Translations under genes and position numbers: made by a program
In this document: piece by piece, positions 2 through 40,099 of the stretch
Layout: the number at the start of each line of letters is the position of its first letter
Position numbering within the stretch: position 1 is the first letter of the stretch
The notes under the pieces: generated by a model
Seen by the model: only the letters and a program-made list of their open reading frames with translations
Told to the model about the DNA's origin: nothing
Databases searched by the model: none
Origin: Acidobacteriota bacterium
Lineage (GTDB): Bacteria > Acidobacteriota > Vicinamibacteria > Vicinamibacterales > SCN-69-37
Assembly (NCBI GenBank): GCA_005799825.1
Contig: SYFT01000024.1
Location: forward strand, 11,069-75,068
Direction: 5' to 3'
Length of the DNA: 64,000 nt

Positions 2-1855
2 TCACTGCGGCGGTTGGCCGCGTTTGCAACCGGCCAGGAGTTGAAAGTACCGACCCTTGGCGCTGACCTCGTGGCCATCGAAGCGTCGGCACGCGCGGCC
101 ATTGAGGCTTTCGACGCGCGCGCCACACACCAGACGCTGCCCCACATCGCGACGGGCCTGGGTCAGGTGCGCGCACTGCGCACGGTCGTGGCCGCCAGTT
201 CGTTGACCACCGACGCGCGCGCCGAACTTTCCTGGCGCCTCGATCGCAAGGCACGCGACTTCATGAAAGCCCTCGAACTCGCCCAGGGCATCGTCACCCA
301 CATCACCGTGCCTGATGGCAACGTGGTGCGCGGCCAGACCTTCGATGTCATGGCGCAGGTGTTCAACACAGGGACCGAGCCGATGTCGGTGGACGAGGTC
401 GCGCTCCAGGTGCCGACCGGCTGGACTGCTTCGCTCAAGCAGGGGCAGCCCGTCGCCTTGAAACACAACGAAGCCGCCACGCTGCTCTACAGCGTCACCG
501 TCGGCCCCAACGCCCGGTACTCACAGCCCTACTGGAAGCGCAGGCCTGGTCCCGTGGAGCGCACGGGGGGCGATATCTACGACCTCGACATTCCCGAGCA
601 CCATCTGCTGCCGTGGAGTCCTCCGGACGTGACCGCCACGGTGAGCTACACTGCCGGCGGAGCAAAGGCCGCGATCACGTCGCCCGCCTACTACCGCTAC
701 GACGGCCCGTGGGTGGGCGGAGAAAAGCAGAAGGTGCTGAACATCGTGCCGCACGTGTCGGTGAAACTGACGCCGGACATTGCGGTGGTGCCGCTCACGG
801 CGGGGGGCAAGAAGAAGGAATTTCGCGTCTCGGTACTCAACAACGCGCCTGGTGGCTCGGCAGTCAAGGTACGGCTCGAGACTCCGGAGGGCTGGCAGGT
901 GGAACCCGCCGAAGCCACGCTGAACTTCACAGTGGAAGAAGAAGAAATGTCGGCGCAGTTCTTCGTCACACCACCGGCGCGAGTGACGACGGGCGAAGCT
1001 GTGATTCGAGCTGTGGCAGTACGGGGGACCGAGGCGTTTCGCGAAGGCTATCAGGTGATCGCGTACAACCACATTCAGACGCGTCACCTCTTTCACCCGG
1101 CCGCCTCGAAGATCAAGATGATTGACGTCGTCGTGCCCGCCAACCTGCAGGTCGGCTACGTGGTGGGCACGGGCGATGACGTCCCTGCGGCCATCCGCCA
1201 GCTCGGCGCGACGGTCACCATGCTGTCGCCCGACGACATGGCGTTTGGGGACCTATCGAAATACTCGACGATTGTGCTCGGTATTCGCGCTTATGAGAAG
1301 CGGCCGGACGTGCGAGCCTACAACCAGCGGCTCTTCGACTTCGCGCGCAACGGTGGCCACCTGGTTGTGCAATACAACAAGACGGCCATGAATCAGCTCG
1401 GCGGTGGCCAGGCTGGTCCTGCTCCAGGTGCGTTCGGCGGCGGTGGCCCAGGCGGCGGACGCGGCGGTCGCGGCGGCGGCGCGCCCCCCAACAGTCCTTA
1501 CGTCCCGTATCCCGGTGGCATCACGAGCAATCGCGTGACGGTGGAGGAAGCGCCCGTGCGAGTCCTCGAGGACGGCACGACCGAGATGAGCCGCCCGAAC
1601 CGCATCACGGCGGCCGACTTCGCGGGCTGGGTGCAGGAGCGCGGCCTCTACTTCTTCGGCGCTAACGACCCGCGCTACACCGACATCCTGGCGGCCACCG
1701 ATCCGTGGGCCTTCAACCCGGGTGAAAAGAAGGGCATGCTGACCGTGGCCCAACTGGGCAAAGGCACGTGGACCTATGTGGGCCTCGGCCTCTGGCGCCA
1801 GTTGCCGGCCGGCACGCCGGGAGCGTACCGCATACTCGCGAACTTGCTGCGCTAG
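2..1855 (+). CDS. C-terminal part of a large hypothetical (probably secreted) protein; 5' end lies outside the window
   Basis: ORF is open to the window edge in frame 2. The segment STIVLGIRAYEKRPDVRAYNQRLFDFARNGGHLVVQYNK resembles the GATase1/ThuA-like module of long PIG-L/LmbE-type proteins (recalled, not searched). It contains a Gly/Arg tract [15 protein letters not shown]. Confidence 0.6.
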   Translation, partial: SLRRLAAFATGQELKVPTLGADLVAIEASARAAIEAFDARATHQTLPHIATGLGQVRALRTVVAASSLTTDARAELSWRLDRKARDFMKALELAQGIVTHITVPDGNVVRGQTFDVMAQVFNTGTEPMSVDEVALQVPTGWTASLKQGQPVALKHNEAATLLYSVTVGPNARYSQPYWKRRPGPVERTGGDIYDLDIPEHHLLPWSPPDVTATVSYTAGGAKAAITSPAYYRYDGPWVGGEKQKVLNIVPHVSVKLTPDIAVVPLTAGGKKKEFRVSVLNNAPGGSAVKVRLETPEGWQVEPAEATLNFTVEEEEMSAQFFVTPPARVTTGEAVIRAVAVRGTEAFREGYQVIAYNHIQTRHLFHPAASKIKMIDVVVPANLQVGYVVGTGDDVPAAIRQLGATVTMLSPDDMAFGDLSKYSTIVLGIRAYEKRPDVRAYNQRLFDFARNGGHLVVQYNKTAMNQLGGGQAGPAPGAFGGGGPGGGRGGRGGGAPPNSPYVPYPGGITSNRVTVEEAPVRVLEDGTTEMSRPNRITAADFAGWVQERGLYFFGANDPRYTDILAATDPWAFNPGEKKGMLTVAQLGKGTWTYVGLGLWRQLPAGTPGAYRILANLLR

Positions 1856-1865
1856 ACTTGAGCGG

Positions 1866-3080
1866 ATGTCTCCGTCTACGCGGCCGTCGCTGTCTCGTGC
1901 CGATGCGCCGCCCGGTGCCCTGCGCTGGATCCTCGTCATCGTCTTTCTGGACATGATGGGACTGGGCCTGCTGGTGCCGGTGATTCCGCTGATCGTGCGT
2001 GAGTTTCGTACCGACGCCCTCACGATTGGGTGGATCTCAATGGCGTACGCGGCCGCGCAGTTTGTGGCCTCGCCCCTGCTCGGCGCATGGTCGGACCGTC
2101 ATGGACGGCGGGGCGTGCTACTGCTCAGCTTCCTGGGTTCGGCAGCGGCGTACTTCGCATTTGGATGGGCTCCGGCCGTGTGGGTGCTCTTTGCCGGACG
2201 GATCATTGATGGCCTGACCGGTGCCAACGTCGGCATGTCGCAGGCGTACATCGCCGACATCACGGAAGTCGCCCAACGATCGCGGACGCTCGCGCTCTCG
2301 GGTGTTGCCCTCGGCGCCGGGTTCATCGTGGGTCCACTCGCAGGGATCGGGCTCTCTGCCTTCGGTCCGCACGTGCCGGCGTTTGCGGCCGGAGGCCTGG
2401 CGCTGGCCAGCACGTTACTGGCATGGTGGCGGCTGCCGGAATCACTGGCGGCGCATACCCGTGCCGCGCCCGCGACAGTGCGCCAACTGAATCCACTTGC
2501 GCCTCTCCTGCAGGCGCTGGGGCGGCGTTCCCTTCGGCCGCTCCTGGTGGCCACATTTCTCGCGAACTTCGCCATGGCAGCGCTGCGATCGCACTTCGCG
2601 TTTTTTGCCATCGCAGTTCTGGCCTTCAGCCAGTCGGATGCGAACCGCGTGATGGCATTCCTCGGTGTGATGATGGTCGTTGCCCAGGGCGGACTCGTGC
2701 GGCAGGCCGTGCATCGTTGGGGCGATCACGGCACGCTCGTGGTGGGCCTGATGCTGAGCGCTGTTGGTTTCGTCGGCCTCTCGGTGGCGGTCTCGCCGAC
2801 GATGCTCTACATGATGGTCGCCGTCACCGCCGTTGGTGTTGGACTCGGCACGCCCACGATGGCGGCGCTCGTGTCGCGCCGCTCCGGAGCCGTTGAGCAG
2901 GGCGTGATGCTCGGCGCCGCGCAGGCGTCCGCGTCGCTCGCACAAGTCATCGGTCCTGTCTGGGCGGGGTTCATCTTCGATCGCGCTGGGCCGCAGTTTC
3001 CCTTCAGCACGGGCGCCGCGCTCGTCGCGGCCGCCCTGCTTGTGGTGACGCTGAATCGCCCGCGCGAGTCCCGCTCGTAG
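1866..3080 (+). CDS. MFS transporter (drug/tetracycline-efflux-like)
   Basis: Polytopic hydrophobic profile. MFS loop motif GAWSDRHGRRGVLLLS. ATG at 1866 was chosen because the listed start at 1776 overlaps the preceding gene. Confidence 0.85.
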   Translation: MSPSTRPSLSRADAPPGALRWILVIVFLDMMGLGLLVPVIPLIVREFRTDALTIGWISMAYAAAQFVASPLLGAWSDRHGRRGVLLLSFLGSAAAYFAFGWAPAVWVLFAGRIIDGLTGANVGMSQAYIADITEVAQRSRTLALSGVALGAGFIVGPLAGIGLSAFGPHVPAFAAGGLALASTLLAWWRLPESLAAHTRAAPATVRQLNPLAPLLQALGRRSLRPLLVATFLANFAMAALRSHFAFFAIAVLAFSQSDANRVMAFLGVMMVVAQGGLVRQAVHRWGDHGTLVVGLMLSAVGFVGLSVAVSPTMLYMMVAVTAVGVGLGTPTMAALVSRRSGAVEQGVMLGAAQASASLAQVIGPVWAGFIFDRAGPQFPFSTGAALVAAALLVVTLNRPRESRS

Positions 3081-4526: not shown

Positions 4527-5363
4527 ATGACGCGACCAGTGGCCATCCGCGCCGTGACGCGTTTTGTCAGGGGTCTCCCAACGCACGATCAGGATCTGGT
4601 GGCGGCCGAGGCGCCGATTGCCCTGCGCCTGCACGCACACACGGGCCACGAACGCGATCTGGGCCTCCTGATGCGCACACCTGGGCATGACGAGGACCTG
4701 GCGACGGGCGTACTGACGGCCGAAGGCGTCGTCTTCCGCGCAGGCGATCTCGTGGCGATCGAGGTGCATCACGATGAGGCGCGCAAGAGTGATGCAGCCG
4801 ATCGCACGGACGTGATCCACGTCTGGGTGGGTCCAGGGGCCGACATCAATGCCATCAGTGACCGTGTGGGGACCGCGACCAGCGCGTGCGGGCTGTGCGG
4901 CCGGCTGTCGATGCGGCAGATTGATCGCCTGGGCGCGCCCCTGGCAACCGAGGCGCCGCGCGTGAGCGCTGACCTCATTCAGTCGTTGCCGGACCGGCTT
5001 CGCGAGGCCCAACACGCGTTCGCCCAGACAGGTGGCCTGCATGCGGCCGCGGTCTTCACGGCGGATGGCGCATTGGTGGACATGCGGGAGGATGTGGGCC
5101 GCCACAATGCGGTGGACAAAGTCGTGGGCGCGCTGCTTCGCCGTGACGGCCTGCCTGCCCGCGATCTCATCCTCGCCGTGAGCGGCCGAGTGGCGTACGA
5201 AATTGTCCAGAAGGCGGCCATGGCCGGCCTGCCCATGATCGTGGCCGTCGGGGCGCCCACCGACCTGGCGGTGGACGCGGCACGCGCGTGCGGCATTACC
5301 GTCCTCGGGTTCGTCCGCGACGGCCGGTTCAACGTTTACACCCACGGCCAACGGGTCCTCTGA
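4527..5363 (+). CDS. fdhD: Formate dehydrogenase accessory sulfurtransferase FdhD
   Basis: FdhD signature DVGRHNAVDKVVGALL. ATG at 4527 lies 8 nt after the upstream stop. Confidence 0.85.
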   Translation: MTRPVAIRAVTRFVRGLPTHDQDLVAAEAPIALRLHAHTGHERDLGLLMRTPGHDEDLATGVLTAEGVVFRAGDLVAIEVHHDEARKSDAADRTDVIHVWVGPGADINAISDRVGTATSACGLCGRLSMRQIDRLGAPLATEAPRVSADLIQSLPDRLREAQHAFAQTGGLHAAAVFTADGALVDMREDVGRHNAVDKVVGALLRRDGLPARDLILAVSGRVAYEIVQKAAMAGLPMIVAVGAPTDLAVDAARACGITVLGFVRDGRFNVYTHGQRVL

Positions 5364-5701
5364 ACGGGAATTTTTCCGCAGTCTGACGCTGACCGAGCGA
5401 AATTGAACGCGCGTCGTGGACGGCGTTTACAGGGTTTATCGAGGGCCGGTCCTGCGGAAAATTGCGGCAAGGATCCTGCAGAGTCAACGGGCAGCGATGC
5501 ATCCATGACGACCCGTGTCCTCCCCTTTATTGGCCTGCTGATGTGGCTGGCAGCTCTCGGCATGGTGCCGATGGCGTGGCAGGTCATGCACTTGTTGGCG
5601 TCGTACCCCTTCTTGCCCACTTCAATTTTGACCGTATCCTGCGCGCCAGGTGTTCCCGCGGCCACCAATGACAGACCCGAGACCAGTAACATTCCCGTCA
5701 A
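5336..5701 (-). pseudogene. Possible remnant of a small c-type cytochrome
   Basis: Signal-peptide-like KFAVRLTGMLLVSGLSLVAAGTPGAQD followed by heme motif CMTCH. After that the ORF becomes low-complexity, Arg/Pro-rich, and overlaps the fdhD 3' end. No canonical ATG precedes the signal peptide. Confidence 0.3.
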
Positions 5702-13875: not shown

Positions 13876-14850
13876 TTACTTTCCTCCCGCCACCATCGCC
13901 TTCCAGGCCGCCTCGTAGGCGTCCACTGTGGCGGCGGTTACCACGTCCACACCCGAATCGATGATTGGATTGGTGGGCTTGCGGCCGTTGATGATGCCGT
14001 GTAGGAGTTTGATGGGCTCCTCACCCCAGCCGAAGTACTTCTGGCCGAGCAGGACCTGGACCTTGCCCGCGCGCAGCAGCGTAATGGCCGATGGGACCGT
14101 ATCAAACGACACGAACTTCGTAGTCGGCGGTACCGGAGCGAGCGCGTTGGCGCTGAACACGGGCCAGCCGCCCACCGAAATCCAGGCGCCGAGGTTGGGG
14201 TACCGGTTGGTGCCGGTCGCAATGATCTCGCCAGTGCGCACGCTGTCTTCCTTGATGTCGTAAGTCTCAAGGATGGTAATGCCGGGGTGCTTCGCGAGGG
14301 CTTCCCGGGCGCCTTCGAGCCGCCGGGCAAGGTTGTTGGCGCCAAGACTTGTAATGAACGCCACCGTTCCCTTGCCGTTTAACATCTTGGCCGTCTCCTC
14401 GCCCATCACGATGCCCGACCGGTAGTCGTCCACGCCGTAGAACGCCAACCGTTTTGATGCCGGGGCATCTGAGTCCCAGGTCACCACCGGAATACCGGCG
14501 TCAACAGCGCGGTCGATCGTTGACGTCAGGAACGACGCATTGAGCACCGAGATGGCAATGCCATCCACCTTCTGGGTGATGAACGATTCGAGCACTTCCT
14601 TCTGGCGCAGCTCATCGGCGCGGTCAGGACCGCGATAGATGACCTCCACGCCCAGTGCGGCGGCCGCCCGCTCGCCGCCGATACGCGCGTAGTCGAACAC
14701 CGGAATGTCGAGCGACTTCGGAATCAGCGCAAAGCGCAGCTTCCTAGCTGCCGGAGGCGCGTCAGAAGTTCCACCCCCACACGCGACCGCACCCATCGTG
14801 CCCATCACGCTCAAAACGGCCACAACCGCGACCAGCAGTACCTTCTTCAT
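13876..14850 (-). CDS. Sugar ABC transporter substrate-binding lipoprotein (ribose/RbsB-like periplasmic binding fold)
   Basis: Lipoprotein signal MKKVLLVAVVAVLSVMGTMGAVAC. PBP type I pattern FALIPKSLDIPVFDY...VDGIAISVLN...VVTWDSD. Confidence 0.85.
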   Translation of the reverse strand: MKKVLLVAVVAVLSVMGTMGAVACGGGTSDAPPAARKLRFALIPKSLDIPVFDYARIGGERAAAALGVEVIYRGPDRADELRQKEVLESFITQKVDGIAISVLNASFLTSTIDRAVDAGIPVVTWDSDAPASKRLAFYGVDDYRSGIVMGEETAKMLNGKGTVAFITSLGANNLARRLEGAREALAKHPGITILETYDIKEDSVRTGEIIATGTNRYPNLGAWISVGGWPVFSANALAPVPPTTKFVSFDTVPSAITLLRAGKVQVLLGQKYFGWGEEPIKLLHGIINGRKPTNPIIDSGVDVVTAATVDAYEAAWKAMVAGGK

Positions 14851-15806
14851 GCTTCTCCCCTTCGCACCATGATCTGGTCCATCACCACAATGACAATGAC
14901 CGCCAGACCGACGATGACCCGATCATAGAACGTGGCGCCCGGAATCTGCGGCAGCGCGTTGCGTAGAACACCAAAAATCAGCGCACCGAGCACGGCGCCG
15001 GCCACCGACCCTCGGCCGCCGGTCAAACTGGTGCCGCCCACCACCGCGGAGGCGATGATGTCCAGTTCGTACCCATTGGCGAGGTCGGCTTTGCCCTGCC
15101 CCTGCACCACGGCCAGCACGACGCCCGAGATGGCCGCGAGGAGGCCCGCCGTGACGTAGGCGGTCGTCTTGACCAACCCGACCCGCAGGCCCGAGAACAA
15201 GGCGGCGGTTTCGTTGCCGCCCACCGCGAAAATGGCGCGCCCCCACTGGAACCGCTTCATCAGCACCTGGAAGGTGCCCGCCAGTGCCACCATGACCAGC
15301 GGCGGGACCCAGTCGATCGACACACCGACCACCGTCCAGTTACGGGGCAGCTTCGCGGACAGATCGTAAAACCGCGCCTCTGTGATGATGTAGCCCGCGC
15401 CGCGCCAGATGCCCATCACGCCCAGCGTGGCGATGAACGGCGGCAACCGCATGCCGACAATCAGCCATGACGACGCCAGACCGGCCGAAAGGCCCACCAT
15501 CAGGCCCATCAGGGCGCTGGCCGTGAGGGACCAGTCGGCCTGGACGAAGAAGTACCCGGTCACAACACTCGTCAGGCCAATGACGGCACCCGACGACAGG
15601 TCGATGCCGCCCGTGATGATGACAATGGCCGCACCGATGGCCGCAATGCCGTAGATCGACGAGTACTTGAGGATCAGGAGGGCGTTGCCGACATTCAGGA
15701 ACGGATGCCCGCCATCCGACGGCCACAGATACCACGTAAAAAACGCGACCTCCAGCACGAGAATCATCAACGTGCTGACTTCGCGCACCTGCCACAACTG
15801 CTTCAC
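14847..15806 (-). CDS. Sugar ABC transporter permease (RbsC/AraH-like)
   Basis: Polytopic membrane protein. 4-bp overlaps with both neighbours. GGIDLSSGAVIGL motif typical of this permease family. Confidence 0.85.
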   Translation of the reverse strand: MKQLWQVREVSTLMILVLEVAFFTWYLWPSDGGHPFLNVGNALLILKYSSIYGIAAIGAAIVIITGGIDLSSGAVIGLTSVVTGYFFVQADWSLTASALMGLMVGLSAGLASSWLIVGMRLPPFIATLGVMGIWRGAGYIITEARFYDLSAKLPRNWTVVGVSIDWVPPLVMVALAGTFQVLMKRFQWGRAIFAVGGNETAALFSGLRVGLVKTTAYVTAGLLAAISGVVLAVVQGQGKADLANGYELDIIASAVVGGTSLTGGRGSVAGAVLGALIFGVLRNALPQIPGATFYDRVIVGLAVIVIVVMDQIMVRRGEA

Positions 15807-17353
15807 GCGTTGCCTCCTGCGGGCCGGTCGAGATCAACGTCATGTGTGGCCAGCCGCATCACGGTCTCTTCGGTCGCGCCTGCCCCCGGCAATTCGCCGC
15901 GCAGATGCCCCTCGCGCATCACGAGAATGCGATCGGCTAGGGCCAGCACTTCGGGCAGATCGCTTGAGACCATCAGGCAGGCCATCCCGGCATCCGCCTG
16001 GTGCCGAATGAGGTTGTGAATCTCGAACTTGGCGCCGACGTCCACGCCCTTCGTGGGTTCGTCCAGCAGCAACACCTTCGGCGTGGTCGCCAACCACTTG
16101 CCGGCCACGATCTTCTGCTGGTTGCCGCCCGACAACGCGTCGGGCGTGACCTTCAGGTGGGGTGCCTTGATCGTGAGCGCCTCGACCTGGGCACGCGCGG
16201 CGGTTTCCTCACCCGCGTCACGAATGAGGCCCACGCCCTGCTTGGCGGCCAGCGGCAGCACCAAGTTGTGGCGGAGCGAGAGATTAAAAAACAGTCCCTG
16301 GCGCTGCCGATTCTCCGGCACCAGCGCGAGTCCAGCCCTGGCCGCATCTCGGGTCGAGCGCACGTAAATGGCTTGACCATCTACGGCCACCTGGCCCGCG
16401 TCCGGAGTGGCCAGACCGAAGAGGGTCTCGAGAATTTCGGTGCGGCCGGATCCCACCAAACCGAACATGCCGACAATCTCGCCAGGCGCCACCTGGAACG
16501 AGACATCCTCAAACGCGGGCCGCCTGGAGAGCCCGCGGACTTGCAGCGCTGGGGAACTGGGGAACTGGGGAACTGGGGAACTGGGGAACTGAGGAACTGA
16601 GGAACTGTGCGGCACGCGACGTGGTGGCTCACGGCCCACCATCGCCCGCACGATGTCGTCGGATGGTGTAGTCGCGCGCTCGAATGTGTCCACAAATTGG
16701 CCATCGCGCAGCACGGTAATACGGTCGCAGAGGCGATACACCTCCGGGAGCCGGTGCGACACGAACAGCACGGTGACGCCCTGCTGCCGCAGGCGTGTCA
16801 CCACGCCAAACAGGTGATCGACCTCGGCGTCGGTCAACGAGGTCGTGGGTTCATCAAGCACGAGCACACGGCAGTCGAAGGCAAGCGCGCGGGCGACCTG
16901 TACCAGTTGCGCGCATGCCGTCGACACATGTTGCATCGACGTGTCCGGGGTGACCGGCACATGGAGTTGCATCAGCAATTCCTGGGTGCGCGCGCGCATG
17001 GCCCGTTCGTCCAGCACTCCCCACCGGTTGGTGATTTCGCGGCCCGCGAAAATATTCGCGGTGACTGAGAGGTTGGGAAACGCGAGCATCTCCTGGTAGA
17101 CCATGCCGATGCCGTGTTCAAGCGCCTCACGTGGAGTGGAAAAGTGGATGCGTTCGCCGGCCCACGAGAGTGCTCCGCGGTCGGGCCTGATGATCCCGGC
17201 CAGAATCTTGAGCAACGTGGACTTGCCGGCGCCGTTTTCGCCGACACACGCGTGCGCGTCGCCGGCGGCGATCGTGAAGCTGACGCCGCGCAGCGCCTGT
17301 ACGGCGCCAAAGGCCTTCGCCACGTCACAAAACTCCAACCCGGCCGTTATCAT
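15803..17353 (-). CDS. Sugar ABC transporter ATP-binding protein, duplicated ATPase (RbsA/MglA-like), with repeat-encoded linker insertion
   Basis: Two nucleotide-binding domains. Walker A GENGAGKST and GLVGSGRTE. Signature LSGGNQQK. Walker B VLLLDEPT. ATG at 17353 (MITAGLEF) is preferred over the listed start at 17515. The linker HSSSVPQFPSSPVPQFPSSPA is encoded by the 8-bp repeat array. Confidence 0.85.
   Translation of the reverse strand: MITAGLEFCDVAKAFGAVQALRGVSFTIAAGDAHACVGENGAGKSTLLKILAGIIRPDRGALSWAGERIHFSTPREALEHGIGMVYQEMLAFPNLSVTANIFAGREITNRWGVLDERAMRARTQELLMQLHVPVTPDTSMQHVSTACAQLVQVARALAFDCRVLVLDEPTTSLTDAEVDHLFGVVTRLRQQGVTVLFVSHRLPEVYRLCDRITVLRDGQFVDTFERATTPSDDIVRAMVGREPPRRVPHSSSVPQFPSSPVPQFPSSPALQVRGLSRRPAFEDVSFQVAPGEIVGMFGLVGSGRTEILETLFGLATPDAGQVAVDGQAIYVRSTRDAARAGLALVPENRQRQGLFFNLSLRHNLVLPLAAKQGVGLIRDAGEETAARAQVEALTIKAPHLKVTPDALSGGNQQKIVAGKWLATTPKVLLLDEPTKGVDVGAKFEIHNLIRHQADAGMACLMVSSDLPEVLALADRILVMREGHLRGELPGAGATEETVMRLATHDVDLDRPAGGNA
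16551..16606. repeat. 8-bp tandem repeat array (GGGGAACT)x5 (GAGGAACT)x2 inside the ABC ATPase coding sequence
   Basis: Read directly: seven perfect head-to-tail octamers, 56 bp. On the coding (minus) strand they read AGTTCCTC x2, AGTTCCCC x5. Confidence 0.95.
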
Positions 17354-17362
17354 TTGGCGGTA

Positions 17363-17374
17363 ATCGTATACGAT
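17363..17374. promoter_or_regulatory. Perfect 12-bp palindrome ATCGTATACGAT in the divergent ABC-operon/galM promoter region
   Basis: Read directly. It lies 10 nt upstream of the ATPase ATG (17353) and 75 nt upstream of the galM ATG (17449). AT-rich relative to its surroundings. Confidence 0.3.
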
Positions 17375-17448
17375 CCCTTCAGGGTCCAGGCCTTGCCCGC
17401 CGTAGCGTAGAACGCGGAGGTAGGTCCGGAGTTCAAGAGGGGAACGCA

Positions 17449-18597
17449 ATGAGGCACACAGCGGTGGCGGTGATGGTTGGGATGGTTGCGGTGGGATGTG
17501 GTGGTGGTGAATCATCTCTGCCAGTGCCTGGCAACGACATCCGCATCACCTCGGTGCCCTTTGGCGCCACGGCCGACGGCACGCCCGTCGATGTCATCAC
17601 GCTTCGGAACGGCAAGGGCATCGAGATGACGGTGCTCACCTATGGCGGCATCATCATGTCGCTCAAGACACCGGATCGAAATGGCGTGGCGGACGACATT
17701 GTGATGGGCCACGACACCGTGGGCGGCTACGAGGCGAACTCTCCGTATTTCGGCAGCCTGATCGGCCGGGTGGGCAACCGCATCGCAAACGGCGCCTTCA
17801 CACTCGACGGCAAGGTACACACGCTCGCTAAGAACAACGGCCCGAACCACCTGCACGGCGGCCTCAAGGGCTGGGACAAGGTGGTCTGGAAGGCCGACCC
17901 GTTCCAGGACCGGACCGGAGCCGGTGTACGTCTGGAATACATAAGCGCCGACGGCGAAGAGGGGTATCCCGGCAAGGTCACCGCCCATGTGGTCTATACG
18001 CTGACGCCCGACAACACCTTGGTGGTGGACTACCACGCGACCACCGACACACCCACGGTCATCAACCTGACGCAGCACAGCTACTTCAACCTAGGCGGCA
18101 GGAAGACCACCGACATCCTGGGTCATGAATTGATGGTCAACGCCGACCGCTACACGCCGGTGAACTCCACGCTCATCCCCACCGGAGAACTGGCGCCAGT
18201 CGCCGGCACACCCTTTGACTTTCGCGCGCCCACGGCCATTGGCGCGCGCATCAACGACAAGAATACGCAGTTGGAATACGGCAAGGGCTACGACCACAAC
18301 TACGTGTTAACCCGGTCGGGCACCGGACTCGAACTGGCCGCGCGCGTGTATGAACCCACCACCGGCCGCACGCTTGAGATCTCAACCACAGAACCCGGCG
18401 TCCAGCTCTACACGGGCAACTTCCTCGACGGCACGATCACCGGTAAGGGCGGGCATGTGTATTCCTTCCGCTCGGGTCTCTGTCTCGAAACGCAGCACTA
18501 TCCCGACTCGCCGAACCAGAAGGGTTTTCCCTCGATCGAATTGCGGCCAGGCGGCGAATACAAATCAAAAACGGTCTTCGCCTTCGGCAGCCGCTAG
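17449..18597 (+). CDS. galM: Aldose 1-epimerase (galactose mutarotase), lipoprotein-type signal
   Basis: Mutarotase motifs NGPNHLHGG, NLTQHSYFNL, GLCLETQHYPDSPN. N-terminal MRHTAVAVMVGMVAVGC. Confidence 0.9.
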   Translation: MRHTAVAVMVGMVAVGCGGGESSLPVPGNDIRITSVPFGATADGTPVDVITLRNGKGIEMTVLTYGGIIMSLKTPDRNGVADDIVMGHDTVGGYEANSPYFGSLIGRVGNRIANGAFTLDGKVHTLAKNNGPNHLHGGLKGWDKVVWKADPFQDRTGAGVRLEYISADGEEGYPGKVTAHVVYTLTPDNTLVVDYHATTDTPTVINLTQHSYFNLGGRKTTDILGHELMVNADRYTPVNSTLIPTGELAPVAGTPFDFRAPTAIGARINDKNTQLEYGKGYDHNYVLTRSGTGLELAARVYEPTTGRTLEISTTEPGVQLYTGNFLDGTITGKGGHVYSFRSGLCLETQHYPDSPNQKGFPSIELRPGGEYKSKTVFAFGSR

Positions 18598-30536: not shown

Positions 30537-30998
30537 ATGATCCGGCTCATGCCGCAAAAGCTTCGAACCTCTCTCGTTTTGTCTCTCGCCGGACTCGCGG
30601 TCATGGCAACCGCCGTCTCTGTCAAAACCGTCGTCACGCCTTCTGCCCAGGCCGCCCGCTGGACCATTCCGACCGGGGGCGCCGCCGAAGCAAACCCGCT
30701 GCCGATCAACGCGGCCACACTCGCCGGGGGCAAGAAGTTATTTGCTGCCAAATGCCAACGCTGCCATGGACCCGCGGGTAAGGGCGATGGTCCGGATGCG
30801 GACGCAAAGTACGCCGCGGAGATGGACCTGACCAACGTGGCGCGCGCTTCCCGCAATTCTGATGGCACGGTATTTTACAAGATCTGGAACGGGCGCTCGA
30901 ACCCGAAGATGCCCGCCTTCTCGGAAGACACCTCCAAAGAACAGGTCTGGGCCATCGTCGCCTATGCTCAGTCGTTGAGGAAACCGCCCAGTTCCTAA
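30537..30998 (+). CDS. Class I c-type cytochrome (periplasmic)
   Basis: Signal peptide, then heme motif CQRCHG (FAAKCQRCHGPAGKGDGPDA) and a distal PKMPAF Met ligand region. The stop TAA lies in the first unit of the octamer array. Confidence 0.8.
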   Translation: MIRLMPQKLRTSLVLSLAGLAVMATAVSVKTVVTPSAQAARWTIPTGGAAEANPLPINAATLAGGKKLFAAKCQRCHGPAGKGDGPDADAKYAAEMDLTNVARASRNSDGTVFYKIWNGRSNPKMPAFSEDTSKEQVWAIVAYAQSLRKPPSS

Positions 30999-31044
30999 GT
31001 TCCTAAGTTCCTAAGTTCCTAAGTTCCTAAGTTCCTAAGTTCCC
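30990..31044. repeat. 8-bp tandem repeat array (AGTTCCTA)x6 plus a partial unit
   Basis: Read directly. It fills the gap between the cytochrome c gene and the next ORF (GTG at 31046). Confidence 0.95.
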
Positions 31045-31045
31045 G

Positions 31046-31474
31046 GTGTCCTCCTCCGATCCTGCCGGCCACTTTGAACAGCGACTCTTCATCGCGGCAA
31101 AGCCGGCTGACGTGTTCGCGTGTTTTGGGGGTCATGCCGCGCTACAGGTCTGGTGGCAGGTGACGCACGCGGTGGTCACGCCGGTGCCGTTTGGCGTGTA
31201 TGAAATCGAATGGGCGCCGACGTCGTACCGCGACGACCTGTTGGGGCCGCTGGGAGGCGTCTTCCGCGGGACGGTGGTGGATGTGCGTCCGGGCCAGCAG
31301 TTCCTGGTCGCCGACTGCTGATGGGTGCCACCCGAGGGGGACGCACTGGGGCCGGTGGCGCTGCACGTCAGCGGCCAACCTGAAGGCACGGGCTGCCGGT
31401 TGGTGGTGCGCCAGGACGGCTACGAGCCGTCGACGCGGTGGCGGCGATACTACGCGGTCGCGTCGCGCAGTTAG
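31046..31474 (+). pseudogene. SRPBCC/AHSA1-like small protein interrupted by an in-frame TGA (pseudogene, or candidate Sec codon)
   Basis: ORF 31046..31321 ends ...QQFLVADC-TGA. The same frame continues WVPPEGDALGPVALHVSGQPEGTGCRLVVRQDGYEPSTRWRRYYAVASRS to a TAG at 31472-31474. The continuation looks coding-like. Confidence 0.55.
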
Positions 31475-36362: not shown

Positions 36363-37394
36363 TTAGTTTACAGCGAGCACGATCTTGCCGAATTGGTTCC
36401 CGGTGGCCAGTCGGCTCTGCGCCTCGGCCGCCTCGCGCAGCGGGTAGGTCGAATCGACAACTGGCGCGTAACGTCCCTGAAAAAACCCACCGGCGGCCGC
36501 CAGCAGTTCTGTCTTCGACCCCATGTAGGACCCGACAAACGTCAACTGCCGTGCAAACAGGTGCCGGAGGTCCAGCGAGACTTCGAATCCGGTTGTCGCG
36601 CCGCACGTCACCAGACGGCCACCCTTGGCCAGGGAACGGACGCTCTGATTCCACGTGGCCGCGCCCACGTGTTCAATCACGATATTCACCCCTCGCCCCT
36701 CTGTGAGCGCCTTGACGCGCTTCGGCACATCCTCTCGGGTGGAGTCGATCGCGTGATCGGCACCCAGGGCACTGGCCCGGGCGCATTTGTCCTCGCCGCG
36801 AGCGGTGGCGATGACTCGGGCCTGCGCCGTTTTCGCAATCTGGATCGCGGCCTGTCCCACGCCACTGCCGGCCGCGACAACGAGCACCGTGTCGTCACCT
36901 TTCAGGTGGCCGCCGGCAAACAACATGTGCCAGGCGGTCAGGAAAGTCAGCGGAAATGCCGCAGCACTGACGAAGTCGATCCTGTTCGGAATCGGGATGA
37001 TATTTTCTGCCGGAACCGCGACCATCTCGGCGTATCCGCCTGCAGACTGGTACCCCAGCACGTCATAGCGGTCGCATTGGTGATCACGATCTGAAAGACA
37101 TGCACCGCAATGTCCACAACTCAGACCCGGTTGCAGCATCACCCGCTGGCCGACCGCGAGACCCGAGACGCCCTGGCCCAATTCGGCGATGGTGCCCGCC
37201 ACATCGGCGCCTGAAACATGAGGGAGCGGCAGCGTCACGCGGTCCAGCCCACCCCGCTGCCAGAGATCCAGGTGATTGACCGCGCAGGCGGCGACGCGCA
37301 CCAGCACGTGACCGGCGCGCACCTCGGGATCGGGAGCGTCCTCGTACACCAGCACCTCTGGCCCACCGTGCGTATGAAATCTGATCGACTTCAT
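36363..37394 (-). CDS. NADPH:quinone oxidoreductase-like zinc-type alcohol dehydrogenase
   Basis: MDR fold. Motifs CAVNHLDLW, CGHCGAC, VVAAGSGVGQAAIQIA. Confidence 0.85.
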   Translation of the reverse strand: MKSIRFHTHGGPEVLVYEDAPDPEVRAGHVLVRVAACAVNHLDLWQRGGLDRVTLPLPHVSGADVAGTIAELGQGVSGLAVGQRVMLQPGLSCGHCGACLSDRDHQCDRYDVLGYQSAGGYAEMVAVPAENIIPIPNRIDFVSAAAFPLTFLTAWHMLFAGGHLKGDDTVLVVAAGSGVGQAAIQIAKTAQARVIATARGEDKCARASALGADHAIDSTREDVPKRVKALTEGRGVNIVIEHVGAATWNQSVRSLAKGGRLVTCGATTGFEVSLDLRHLFARQLTFVGSYMGSKTELLAAAGGFFQGRYAPVVDSTYPLREAAEAQSRLATGNQFGKIVLAVN

Positions 37395-37433
37395 TTCCCC
37401 AGTTCCCCAGTTCCTAAGTTCCTGAGTTTCCTA
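37393..37433. repeat. Degenerate 8-bp tandem array (ATTTCCCC AGTTCCCC AGTTCCTA AGTTCCTG AGTTTCCT)
   Basis: Read directly. It occupies the whole gap between the M16 gene stop (37431-37433) and the qor start (37392-37394). Confidence 0.9.
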
Positions 37434-38798
37434 GAACTCGATCTCGGCATCCTCGACGGGGCGATCGAGCGCTGCCAGCTGTTCCCGCCATGTCGAGGCG
37501 TCACCCACAACGACGACGATGGCATCGTCTGGTCTGATGTGACGCCGGGCGGCGGCCGACACGGCCTCGGGCGTCACCGCCTCTACCTCCGGAACAAATC
37601 GATCGAAGATATCGGCAGACAGCTCAAACGTCGCGAGCCGTGCGGCGGCGTGGGCCAGTTGCTCGGACGTTTCGAATTGACGGACAAAGCCTCGCGTGAT
37701 CGAGGACTTGGCGCGCTCGAGTTCGTCCGTCTCCGCCGGACGGCTGCCGCCCACGGCCTCGAACTCCTTGAAAATCTCGGACACGACCAGGGGGGTGGCG
37801 TCGCCCTGCACGTTCGTTTCACACGAGAACGTGCCCGATCGCACCCGGAAATCAAAGGCCGTGCGGGCACCATACGTCAGCCCGCGGGCTTCGCGCAGGT
37901 TTAGGTTGATGCGGCTGGAAAACTGGCCGCCGAGCAGCGCATTCAGCGTCACCAGCGCGTGATATTCGTCCACGTTGCGCGCCGGTCCCAGATGGCCCAC
38001 GTTCACCTCTGTCTGTGGCGCGCCAGGCCGATCCACCACAATGACGCGCGCGAGCCCCGACGACATGGCGGCCGGCACCGGGGCGAACAGTGACACGGCG
38101 GCGCTGGCCTGCCACCCGCCCAGTTGCCGTTCGGCCGCCTCAATCGCGTCCTGTGCAGCCACCGCGCCCGCAATGATGAGCGTGGCACCCAATGGGCGCA
38201 TGGCCGCCGCGTGGAACGCCCGAACGTCGTCGATCGATACGCGTGCCAACGCGGCCGATGTGCCGAGCGTGCCGTGCCCGTAAGGGTGCGCGCCGAAGGC
38301 GGCCGACAGGAACGCGCGATCGGCCACCGCGGACGCCGAACTCCTGACCTGGCGCAACCGGTTGAGCCGCATCTCACGCACCCGTTCCAGATCGCTCTCA
38401 TGCAGGCGTGGACGCGTCATCACATCGCCCAGCAGCGCCAACGCGCGCTCCATGAACCGCGTCAGCGTCGTCAGCGTGAATGTCGTGGTATCCGGGCCAA
38501 CATCAATGGACAGTTCACTGCCGAGGCTCGCAAACGCCTCGGCCAGGCCGATCGCATCAAATCGGTCCGTCCCCTCATCAAGCAAGTCGGCCACCACGCC
38601 GGCAAGTCCTGGCGCAGCCGCCGGGTCACACGCTGACCCGACCGACACCACCAGTGCGATCGTCACGACCGGAATGGTGTCGTGGTGAATGGTCCAGACT
38701 CGCGCGCCGCTCGACAGCGTGGCCCGGACCATGGGCGGGAAGGTCACGTGCGCGGGTGCGCCGGCCGCGGGCATCACAAAACGCCGATCGTCGGTCAC
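37431..38798 (-). CDS. M16-family peptidase, non-catalytic-type subunit
   Basis: M16 fold, but the HxxEH position reads GVVADLLDEGT. A GTG at 38798 overlaps the upstream stop (GTGA), so it is preferred over the listed start at 38837. Confidence 0.8.
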   Translation of the reverse strand: MTDDRRFVMPAAGAPAHVTFPPMVRATLSSGARVWTIHHDTIPVVTIALVVSVGSACDPAAAPGLAGVVADLLDEGTDRFDAIGLAEAFASLGSELSIDVGPDTTTFTLTTLTRFMERALALLGDVMTRPRLHESDLERVREMRLNRLRQVRSSASAVADRAFLSAAFGAHPYGHGTLGTSAALARVSIDDVRAFHAAAMRPLGATLIIAGAVAAQDAIEAAERQLGGWQASAAVSLFAPVPAAMSSGLARVIVVDRPGAPQTEVNVGHLGPARNVDEYHALVTLNALLGGQFSSRINLNLREARGLTYGARTAFDFRVRSGTFSCETNVQGDATPLVVSEIFKEFEAVGGSRPAETDELERAKSSITRGFVRQFETSEQLAHAAARLATFELSADIFDRFVPEVEAVTPEAVSAAARRHIRPDDAIVVVVGDASTWREQLAALDRPVEDAEIEF

Positions 38799-40099
38799 GA
38801 GGTCACCACCGCCGGCTCGGAAAGTTCCAGAGCCCATTGCCGCTGGCCCTGGGGCACCACCGACAATGCCACCGCCTGCCCGGCCGACAGAAACGTCCGC
38901 ACGGCGCGCTGGACATCGGCGGCGGTCACACGCAGATACCGATCGAGATCCTGCTCAAAGTAGGAGGGCGACCCGGTGTACACGTTGTAAGCGTTCAACT
39001 GGTCCGCCTTGCCCCCGAACCCGCCGAGCGTCTGCAACCGGTAGAGGAACGAGGCTTCGGCCTGCACTCGGGCGCGTTCGAGTTCGGCCTCGGACGGCCC
39101 GGCCGTGGCCAGCCGTTCCAACTCGTCCATCACCGCCACGCGCAACTCGTCGAGCATGATGCCTGGTGCCGCAGTGGCCACCACCTGGAACAGGCTGCCC
39201 AGTTCCCGTGACCCCTGACCGGCGCCGAGCCCAGCCGCTCGTCTTCGATCGTGCAGCAGCGTGCGATACAGGCGCGAGGTCCGGCCGTTCGCCACCAGAT
39301 CGGCGGTCACGTCGAGCACGGCATCGTCTTCGGTAAACAAGGCCGGACTTGGAAACATCAGATACAGCCGCGGCAACTCCACGCGGTCTTCCAGCAGCAG
39401 ACGCCTCGGCGCCACCGGCACTGCGGGGATCTTCGGCGCCAACAGGGCCGGCCCGGCTGGGATAGCACCAAACAGCCGCTCCACAAGGCGCATCACGGCA
39501 TCGGTGCGCACATCCCCAGCGATGGCAAGCGACGCGTTGGCTGGATGGTAGTACTGCTCGAAAAACGCGCGTGCGTTATCAACCGTCGCTGCGCGCAGGT
39601 CGGACGGATATCCGATCGTGGGCCAGTGATACGGATGGTCAGACGGATAGATCGCCTCGGACAACGCAAAATACGCGAGGCCGTACGGCCGATTCTCGTA
39701 ACTCTGGCGGCGCTCGTTGAGCACCACTTCGCGCTCGGTCTCAAAGCGCTCGGTCGACAACGCGGGCACCAGCCACCCCATGCGATCGGCCTCCATCCAG
39801 AGGGCCAGTTCTGTCGCGCCCTCCGGGACCACCGACCAATAGTTGGTGCGGTCGGCGCTGGTGGAACCATTCAACGACCCACCAGCTTTCTGCAGCGGCT
39901 CAAAAAAACCGTGTGGTTGATGCGCGGCGCCCTTGAACATGAGGTGTTCGAACAGGTGCGCCAGACCGCTGCGACCCGGCGCCTCATTGGCGGAACCGAC
40001 GTGATACCAGACGTTGACGGCCACAAGCGGCAGATGATGATCCTCATGGACCACCACCTGAAGGCCGTTCCCGAGCGTATGCTTTGTGAACGGGATCAA
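38795..40099 (-). CDS. M16-family (pitrilysin-like) zinc peptidase, catalytic-type subunit
   Basis: Inverted zinc motif HxxEH in GLAHLFEHLMFKG. Confidence 0.85.
   Translation of the reverse strand: MIPFTKHTLGNGLQVVVHEDHHLPLVAVNVWYHVGSANEAPGRSGLAHLFEHLMFKGAAHQPHGFFEPLQKAGGSLNGSTSADRTNYWSVVPEGATELALWMEADRMGWLVPALSTERFETEREVVLNERRQSYENRPYGLAYFALSEAIYPSDHPYHWPTIGYPSDLRAATVDNARAFFEQYYHPANASLAIAGDVRTDAVMRLVERLFGAIPAGPALLAPKIPAVPVAPRRLLLEDRVELPRLYLMFPSPALFTEDDAVLDVTADLVANGRTSRLYRTLLHDRRRAAGLGAGQGSRELGSLFQVVATAAPGIMLDELRVAVMDELERLATAGPSEAELERARVQAEASFLYRLQTLGGFGGKADQLNAYNVYTGSPSYFEQDLDRYLRVTAADVQRAVRTFLSAGQAVALSVVPQGQRQWALELSEPAVVTS

Follow-up and report, generated by a model that had tools for sequence, protein, structure and literature searches.

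Copy-number variation of an octanucleotide tract in the interdomain linker of a sugar transporter ATPase from an uncultured acidobacterium

Introduction

ON/OFF variation of gene expression driven by simple sequence repeats (SSRs) has been studied almost entirely in host-adapted pathogens. The SSR contingency loci described there include the tetranucleotide tracts of Haemophilus influenzae, and hepta- and octanucleotide tracts have been proposed to act in the same way (PMC2651432; definitions in PMC11868660). Here we describe an octanucleotide array inside the gene for the ATPase of a sugar ATP-binding cassette (ABC) importer, located in a 64,000-nt stretch of DNA (the window) from an Acidobacteriota bacterium (Vicinamibacterales, SCN-69-37; GCA_005799825.1, contig SYFT01000024.1). 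Like the contingency loci, it combines a unit whose length is not a multiple of three with a position inside an open reading frame (ORF), near-identical strains differ in its copy number, and both intact and truncated alleles are found. Unlike them, its host is a free-living, uncultured acidobacterium and its target is a cytoplasmic transporter ATPase; the tract has only seven units and is found not near the 5' end but in the middle of the gene, at an interdomain hinge, and it belongs to a genome-wide family of arrays that are mostly intergenic. An intragenic, frameshifting variable-number tandem repeat (VNTR) is a known type of element, and it is the host, the gene and the position that are unusual here.

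The unit itself has a counterpart in another phylum. TR2 of Salmonella Typhi, the most variable of eight VNTR typing loci, has CCAGTTCC as its unit and was found as 34 alleles of 4-46 repeats among 103 strains (PMC4819281). As CCAGTTCC is a cyclic permutation of AGTTCCCC, one of the two units of the ATPase tract, the octamer is the same; TR2 differs from the acidobacterial family in being a single enterobacterial locus that serves as a typing marker, with no frameshift of a multidomain enzyme. The cyanobacterial STRR are 7-bp tandem repeats that are dispersed, mostly intergenic and of unknown function (PMC2670836). They share with the arrays described here very short units, a tandem arrangement and dispersal over many mostly intergenic sites, and a Nostoc locus (L096) also carries an octamer array; the acidobacterial unit differs in its length of 8 bp (with a 9-bp variant at one locus, L019) and in its phylum. 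The STRR1 unit, CCCCAGT, is one base shorter than CCCCAGTT. We know of no frameshift polymorphism caused by an STRR in a coding region. Copy-number variation in a high-GC bacterium is a further point of likeness with Mycobacterium tuberculosis, whose tandem repeats are reported to vary both within isogenic populations and between lineages; unlike the tract described here, those are promoter repeats with an effect on transcription, and their within-population rates are given as 10^-2 to 10^-3 per chromosome (PMC12817950).

For the acidobacterial locus, public metagenome assemblies alone reveal that a tract of octamers inside a gene of an uncultured environmental bacterium differs in copy number between near-identical strains, and that one natural allele disables the gene. 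This provides a concrete locus for asking whether environmental bacteria use repeat slippage or merely suffer it. A less expected side finding is the family of octamer arrays in Vicinamibacterales to which the tract belongs, with a unit shared with S. Typhi TR2 and nearly shared with cyanobacterial STRR1; members of this family can pass for frameshift errors or pseudogenes in the annotation of metagenome-assembled genomes (MAGs).

Results and discussion

A seven-unit octamer tract lies between two nucleotide-binding domains

On the plus strand, positions 16551..16606 of the window consist of seven perfect head-to-tail octamers, (GGGGAACT)5(GAGGAACT)2, which on the strand of the gene read CAC-(AGTTCCTC)2(AGTTCCCC)5-AGCGCTG. 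Tandem Repeats Finder delimits this array at 16549..16607 (period 8, 7.4 copies, 98% matches, score 104). The window contains 14 copies of the two-unit pattern AGTTCCNNAGTTCC, where shuffles lead one to expect 0.01, and every copy lies inside one of three arrays (matches from 16551, 30990 and 37401). The first of these falls within a minus-strand ORF (15803..17515) for which homologues support the ATG at 17353 as the start, giving a protein of 516 aa. The array encodes residues 250-268 in the context ...RRVPH-SSSVPQFPSSPVPQFPSSP-ALQVRGL..., with H-SSSVPQFPSSPVPQFPSSP-A corresponding to residues 249-269. Whatever its orientation or frame, the stop-free unit is translated into a flexible peptide (SSPVPQFP forward and GELGNWGT in reverse).

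A Pfam search of the protein identified two ABC_tran domains, the first at residues 21-171, and a comparison with NCBIfam aligned it over its full length with sugar ABC ATPases of the AraG, XylG, RbsA and MglA type. Its scores are below every equivalog cut-off, and for this reason we assign no sugar to the transporter. A single chain carries both ABC_tran domains, and its operon also encodes a BPD_transp_2 permease and a Peripla_BP_4 binding protein; on these sequence features the protein is classified as the ATPase of a CUT2-type sugar importer with fused tandem nucleotide-binding domains (NBDs; Table 1). The ATPase gene is the first of the operon and is followed by the genes for the permease and the periplasmic binding protein. 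Since the permease start and the ATPase stop overlap by 4 nt, the two genes are likely to be translationally coupled. Some sources label close homologues of the ATPase 'rhamnose transport'.

In an AlphaFold2 (AF2) model of the ATPase (mean pLDDT 83), the last helix of domain 1 spans residues 231-239, domain 2 opens with a strand at 270-277, and the tract falls in the gap between them. Away from the chain ends, the pLDDT drops below 50 only at residues 249-265, and the linker that carries the tract is predicted to be disordered. The original prediction, which was made from the letters of the window and placed seven perfect 8-bp units inside an ATPase gene, exactly between its two NBDs, was therefore accurate in repeat coordinates, purity and encoded peptide, as well as in the domain placement of residues 250-268 (AF2 and Pfam).

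Natural alleles differ in unit number and one truncates the ATPase

The ATPase gene was rebuilt in silico with 1 to 14 units. Full-length protein was obtained with 1, 4, 7, 10 and 13 units (n = 1 mod 3), and every other number led to a stop between codons 271 and 343. When n = 0 mod 3, the product ends ...PSAASPRALQAARV* about 10 codons beyond the tract; when n = 2 mod 3, the end comes about 50-75 codons farther on. The proposal that a unit of this length would let changes of one or two units truncate the protein before domain 2, with three-unit steps keeping the frame, holds both in this simulation and in a natural six-unit allele.

A fixed insertion had been expected to show seven units in all related strains. 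The orthologous site was instead found with 4, 6, 7 and 13 units among related assemblies, and the tract is a VNTR by definition, as the copy number of a head-to-tail repeat differs between strains. This census draws mainly on members of the database cluster of the window ATPase and on exact-protein look-ups; a metagenome scan with the ATPase returned mostly distant relatives, with L112 and L139 the only close ones. Alongside full-length members of 516 aa, the cluster contains fragments of 278, 267 and 221 aa on contigs of 0.1-1 Mb.

The origin of the 278-aa fragment could be traced in a 127-kb MEGAHIT contig (L104) from sample ERZ27257033, whose alignment with the window over 6845 nt shows a single substitution and a single gap. 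The gap is exactly one missing AGTTCCCC unit. The resulting six-unit allele is frameshifted and stops at codon 279, which leaves a product of 278 aa and a leftover ORF of 221 aa, so that the truncation has a single-locus genetic cause: loss of one unit alone suffices. The 278-aa product is recorded for two contigs, one of which (L104) was inspected. Seven units are present in three NCBI assemblies of the same species, as read from the DNA of GCA_005778535.1 and GCA_005798135.1 and deduced for the third from its 516-aa protein (P0125).

Further alleles occur in a sister species that is 87-88% identical to the window at the nucleotide level and whose strains are more than 99.8% identical to each other (3-9 substitutions per 4.6-6.1 kb). 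Four of its contigs (L106-L109, GCA_016716905.1 among them) carry four units and two others (L196 and L197) a second four-unit variant, L110 has seven units in the order TC,CC,CC,TC,CC,CC,TC, and L111 (JGI 3300029314, Ga0239302_101911; about 1700..1800) has 13, three of them ACTTCCCC variants. The seven-unit L110 and the four-unit L106 are separated by three substitutions in 6129 nt, and the L110 array resembles a single 24-bp (three-unit) duplication of the L106 block. Four pure AGTTCCCC units are found in L139 and L048 (82-83% nucleotide identity), and their purity in L139 at only 82% identity points to ongoing turnover of the tract. In P0135 (ant_bin.512) and P0139, the seven-unit length has been kept and the sequence has decayed by point substitutions, and homologues at 72% amino acid identity or less have a non-repetitive linker of about 14 residues. 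This distribution, with units in near and more distant relatives and none in the linkers at or below 72% identity, indicates that the insertion is old, with turnover continuing in some lineages and decay under way in others. The original prediction had also reasoned that a fixed insertion would appear in orthologues as a non-repetitive linker of the same sequence. Distant orthologues do have a non-repetitive linker, but it is shorter and not a fixed sequence of the same length, and in close relatives the number of units varies.

Across flanks of 4.6-6.8 kb, the sequences compared differ by 1-9 substitutions while the tract changes. When array events are counted relative to substitutions in the flanks, the tract is estimated to change at roughly 500-2000 times the per-base substitution rate, a crude figure from three to four events with selection acting on both terms. 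For phase-variable SSR tracts, rates 100-10,000 times the basal rate are quoted (Bayliss et al. 2025, PMC11868660). The 4-, 6-, 7- and 13-unit alleles represent changes in both directions over evolutionary time, not reversion within one lineage.

We considered whether the copy-number differences could be assembly or sequencing errors around a tract that is in reality fixed, and rejected this as extremely improbable. It is true that arrays of this family often terminate contigs, one of which (L199) ends inside the second array of the window, that a wastewater contig (L112; CXWK01004802.1, about 2250) has an NN gap exactly at the expected array, where the tract is unresolved or heterogeneous, and that two contigs described below (L105 and L194) may be chimeric joins at arrays. 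Nevertheless, the tracts of 32-104 bp are shorter than the k-mers implied by the k141_ and k127_ contig names and have unique flanks on both sides, and the differences are whole-unit changes, unlike homopolymer errors. The alleles also recur: the seven-unit allele in at least three independent NCBI assemblies, the four-unit allele in at least six contigs from different samples, and the six-unit allele, as its 278-aa product, on record for two contigs.

The in-frame alleles raise the alternative that the tract tunes the length of the NBD hinge in eight-residue steps, thereby modulating ATPase activity or transport, and that frameshifts are noise. The alleles that persist between species (4, 7 and 13 units) are all in frame, L110 can be derived from L106 by one 24-bp duplication, and linker length ranges widely among orthologues. 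The range of those linkers, from about 14 to more than 35 residues, in turn suggests that length is nearly neutral, and the linker is predicted to be disordered; overall, we find length tuning improbable.

Possible rearrangements and other changes at the hinge

The ATPase gene is also interrupted at the tract in ERZ27257034, a sample neighbouring ERZ27257033. One contig (L105, 3748..3795) joins domain 1 and 5.75 units to a TauE/glutamate dehydrogenase locus, and another (L194, 1389..1418) joins a 669-aa gene and 3.9 units to domain 2 and the remaining operon. These reciprocal junctions could have arisen by inversion, through recombination of one array with another, or could be a chimera that the repeats induced during assembly. 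The flanks of the junctions were not found in any of the other loci compared, and one flank was also not found in the window.

Several orthologues show other changes at the same site. In the 13-unit contig of the sister species (L111), a deletion of 245 nt removes the start of domain 2 directly after the array, with CAGCG microhomology at the array edge; either the tract has undergone a second type of gene-disrupting event here or the assembly is in error. Three ATPase orthologues from the cluster of P0002 (P0127, P0128 and P0130) have the linker VSSPVSTFAPAELRRTSPSSPA, which at the protein level is not a pure repeat. Its middle looks like reversed units, as might result from a small inversion or from the insertion of unrelated sequence within the tract. 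In a distant orthologue (L123; JADMIO012726959.1, about 2203..2300), the linker at this hinge is of the (GGS)n type, GSKGSGGSGGSGGSGGS, by its sequence a repeat expansion that arose independently at one and the same permissive site.

The tract belongs to a dispersed, mostly intergenic octamer family

A search of species-representative genomes for (AGTTCCCC)3 matched 103 loci. Acidobacteriota MAGs, mostly labelled Vicinamibacterales, accounted for 74 of these, and the highest numbers per MAG were 31 in ant_bin.222 and 18 in MFD04850.bin.1.105; scattered matches were found in Mesorhizobium, Chloroflexota, Actinomycetota, Bacteroidota, Nostoc (L096) and others. The scan was seeded with the CC variant only, so variant frequencies cannot be derived from it. 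The matched loci contain 125 arrays, 90 of which are more than 300 nt from a locus end. At 44 of these 90 interior arrays there is no spanning open frame, defined as one that extends 60 codons to both sides of the array, and the remaining 46 are spanned by 48 open frames, six of which have a Pfam match. The array is clearly internal in three of the six, namely two ATPase orthologues and the arginyl-tRNA synthetase (ArgRS) of MAG ant_bin.222, and in all three it lies between domains. In two more, a CtpB-like peptidase and a TonB-dependent receptor, it is 5' of the likely start, and the last, a Nostoc amidohydrolase, is a possible fourth internal case. With only three (possibly four) of 90 interior arrays inside a recognisable protein, the family is mostly intergenic, and it resembles STRR in having a short tandem unit at many sites per genome (three arrays in the 64-kb window alone).

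The ArgRS array (L059, 4527..4606; JBKJJZ010000536.1) runs in reverse orientation and adds WGTGELGNWGAGELRSWGTGELGNWGT to the protein in frame, at a point exactly between its N-terminal domain and its catalytic domain. The ArgRS hinge measures 73 residues with the array, compared with 47-60 non-repetitive residues in the 117 orthologues (of 120 listed) that could be delimited by both anchor motifs, and the insert is absent from all 117.

The original prediction had assigned stop-free units to coding sequence and the stop-containing TA variant to the spaces between genes. This division is correct for the window and fails in related genomes, where many arrays that lie in no open frame are pure AGTTCCCC. 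The single-copy octamer is not over-represented in the 64-kb window (two isolated copies versus 1.5 expected), and a dispersed single-copy octamer was therefore rejected as the source of the arrays. Many arrays in short-read Vicinamibacterales MAGs lie at contig ends (e.g. L010, L024, L027, L058, L064, L069 and L077), which indicates that the family breaks short-read assemblies and that array lengths there are underestimated. In ant_bin.222, a 9-bp variant, (CCAGTTCCG)x9, is followed directly by (CCAGTTCC)x3 upstream of the CtpB-like peptidase gene (L019, about 5350..5451).

Literature searches found the octamer and its permutations only as incidental matches in primers and oligonucleotides, searches on simple sequence repeats and phase variation in Acidobacteria found nothing relevant, and no published description of the Vicinamibacterales octamer family was found within this limited search. 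When SSPVPQFP x4 and GELGNWGT x4 were searched against 5.8 billion sequences, only 20 short ORFs were returned, S. Typhi YpfM among them; a 20-residue insert is too weak a signal in a collection of that size.

A by-product of the repeat family or a contingency locus

Taken together, we consider it probable, though far from settled, that the tract is an octanucleotide VNTR, prone to slippage, which a permissive linker tolerates, and that its ON/OFF and linker-length alleles are a by-product rather than a bet-hedging switch. An array of the dispersed AGTTCCNN family of Vicinamibacterales/Acidobacteriota would have landed in the interdomain hinge of the ATPase, where it could survive because the hinge is disordered and length-tolerant. 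Slipped-strand mispairing or unequal exchange would then alter the number of units, perhaps favoured by the G-quadruplex motif of the G-rich strand. Alleles with n = 1 mod 3 (4, 7 and 13 seen) would yield full-length ATPase with a linker that changes in eight-residue steps. Any other allele (6 seen) would shift the frame, reach a stop about 10-75 codons past the tract and remove domain 2, a loss that should abolish transport, and it would probably also lower translation of the permease through the overlapping stop and start. In this reading, the locus is a real mutational hotspot for ON/OFF and linker-length change.

The argument for a by-product is one of context (family distribution, ArgRS and type of gene), and in our judgement it is somewhat more convincing than not. 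The family is overwhelmingly intergenic and its rare coding members all lie in hypervariable interdomain hinges; one such hinge belongs to ArgRS, an essential enzyme for which an OFF state is expected to be lethal; the unit encodes a stop-free flexible peptide both ways; the tract has decayed in some lineages, as in P0135 and P0139; and the product is cytoplasmic. Several of these observations also count against a true contingency (phase-variable) locus, in which selection would keep the tract for reversible ON/OFF switching of the sugar importer. Possible benefits of such a switch include saving the cost of the transporter when the sugar is absent, or escape from something that enters through the transporter or depends on it. 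A frame-shifting unit of high purity in the first gene of a translationally coupled operon, natural ON (4, 7 and 13 units) and OFF (6 units) alleles among near-identical strains, a tract mutability roughly 10^3 times the per-base substitution rate, the second disruption at the array in the neighbouring sample, and the proposal that octanucleotide SSRs mediate phase variation in H. influenzae (PMC2651432) are all consistent with this view. However, OFF has been seen as one allele class only (two contigs with the 278-aa product, with the one from ERZ27257033 inspected), a cytoplasmic ATPase has neither a surface nor a restriction-modification function, and seven units is short beside classic tracts, and we therefore regard a selected switch as unlikely, if worth serious attention. 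The tract has the architecture of a contingency locus and natural alleles of the kind expected from slippage; the conclusion that it is a contingency locus is not supported.

Several points nonetheless weigh against a by-product. In at least one natural sample, OFF is the consensus allele, in an operon that is otherwise intact, and a working switch would look identical. The gene is also interrupted at the array in the neighbouring sample, where selection for loss could be involved, and the tract is pure across 18% flank divergence, which selection for mutability could maintain. In addition, the estimated mutability is within the range of accepted phase-variable SSRs, and the excess of in-frame alleles may partly represent a mutational preference for three-unit steps, given that the second array of the window, the one intergenic comparison, also differs by three units. 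If the tract does prove to be a switch, SSR bet-hedging would extend from host-adapted pathogens to soil and wastewater bacteria, and, if its repeat is also drawn from the cross-phylum family considered below, there would be a mechanistic handle on the long-unexplained repeats of the STRR type.

The unit is shared with S. Typhi and its G-rich strand fits a G-quadruplex motif

S. Typhi proteins named YpfM (P0143, P0148 and P0150-P0152) contain in-frame GELGNWGT repeats in variable number, within products of 35-50 aa. The identity of the units, together with these protein sequences, suggests that the TR2 tract is the GELGNWGT repeat of YpfM.

From four units upwards, (GGGGAACT)n, the G-rich strand, conforms to the canonical G-quadruplex pattern. 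ViennaRNA with DNA parameters predicts a four-layer quadruplex at -29.4 kcal/mol, versus -2.2 kcal/mol without quadruplexes, and with the same program and parameters no quadruplex is predicted for the TA variant, (TAGGAACT)n. The G-rich strand is the template strand in the ATPase gene, and the predicted quadruplex may promote slippage at the tract. We also considered a genuine switch drawn from a cross-phylum, G-quadruplex-capable CCCCAGT(T) family that comprises the Vicinamibacterales arrays, STRR1 and TR2 and is intrinsically prone to expansion, which in our view is doubtful. If a shared G-quadruplex motif does explain recurrent expansion, it would provide a general rule on which short repeats spread in bacterial genomes.

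Other arrays and neighbouring features in the window

The features of the window discussed here are collected in Table 1, together with a divergently transcribed aldose 1-epimerase gene next to the operon.

Table 1. Coordinates of the repeat arrays, the ATPase with its domains, and adjacent genes in the window
Feature	Position	Strand	Basis or remark
Octanucleotide tandem array, slippage-prone tract, coding for SSSVPQFPSSPVPQFPSSP	16551..16606	-	Sequence; alleles of 4, 6, 7 and 13 units in related assemblies
Sugar ABC transporter ATP-binding protein, two fused NBDs, AraG/XylG/RbsA-like, 516 aa	15803..17353	-	Homologues, Pfam, NCBIfam
Nucleotide-binding domain 1, residues 1-240	16634..17353	-	Pfam ABC_tran 21-171; AF2 secondary structure
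Interdomain linker, residues 241-269, disordered in model, length and sequence variable among orthologues	16547..16633	-	Alignment, AF2
Nucleotide-binding domain 2, residues 270-516, lost if unit number is not 1 mod 3	15806..16546	-	Pfam, AF2, six-unit allele L104
Permease gene, BPD_transp_2, 319 aa	14847..15806	-	Start overlaps ATPase stop by 4 nt
Periplasmic sugar-binding protein gene, Peripla_BP_4, 324 aa, last in operon	13876..14850	-	
Aldose 1-epimerase gene, 382 aa, divergently transcribed	17449..18597	+	
Array 2, (AGTTCCTA)x6 + final AGTTCC	30990..31043	+	Tandem Repeats Finder; copy-number polymorphic
Array 3, short, impure, mixed units	37395..37433	+	Spacer between two minus-strand genes

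No promoter or terminator signals were found at the ATPase tract, except for one weak promoter-like match near the gene start, and a promoter or terminator role for the tract was dropped. The GGAAC of the reverse unit resembles a -35 element of ECF sigma factors; the repeat lacks a matching -10 element, and the resemblance was set aside.

Array 2 fills the spacer between a cytochrome c gene (30537..30998, plus strand) and the next ORF (31046..31321, plus strand). The final two codons of the cytochrome c gene, and its TAA stop, come from the first unit of the array, and the other end of the array abuts the next start codon. The six AGTTCCTA units of the window compare with three in ERZ27257034, which is 24 nt shorter at this site. 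The GCA_005778535.1 contig ends inside array 2. Array 3 was not variable, being identical in the window and three other assemblies. It spans the interval from the TAG stop of an M16 peptidase gene (37431..38837, minus strand) to the ATG of a quinone oxidoreductase gene (36363..37394, minus strand), and on the gene strand it places GGGGAA immediately before the ATG of the latter.

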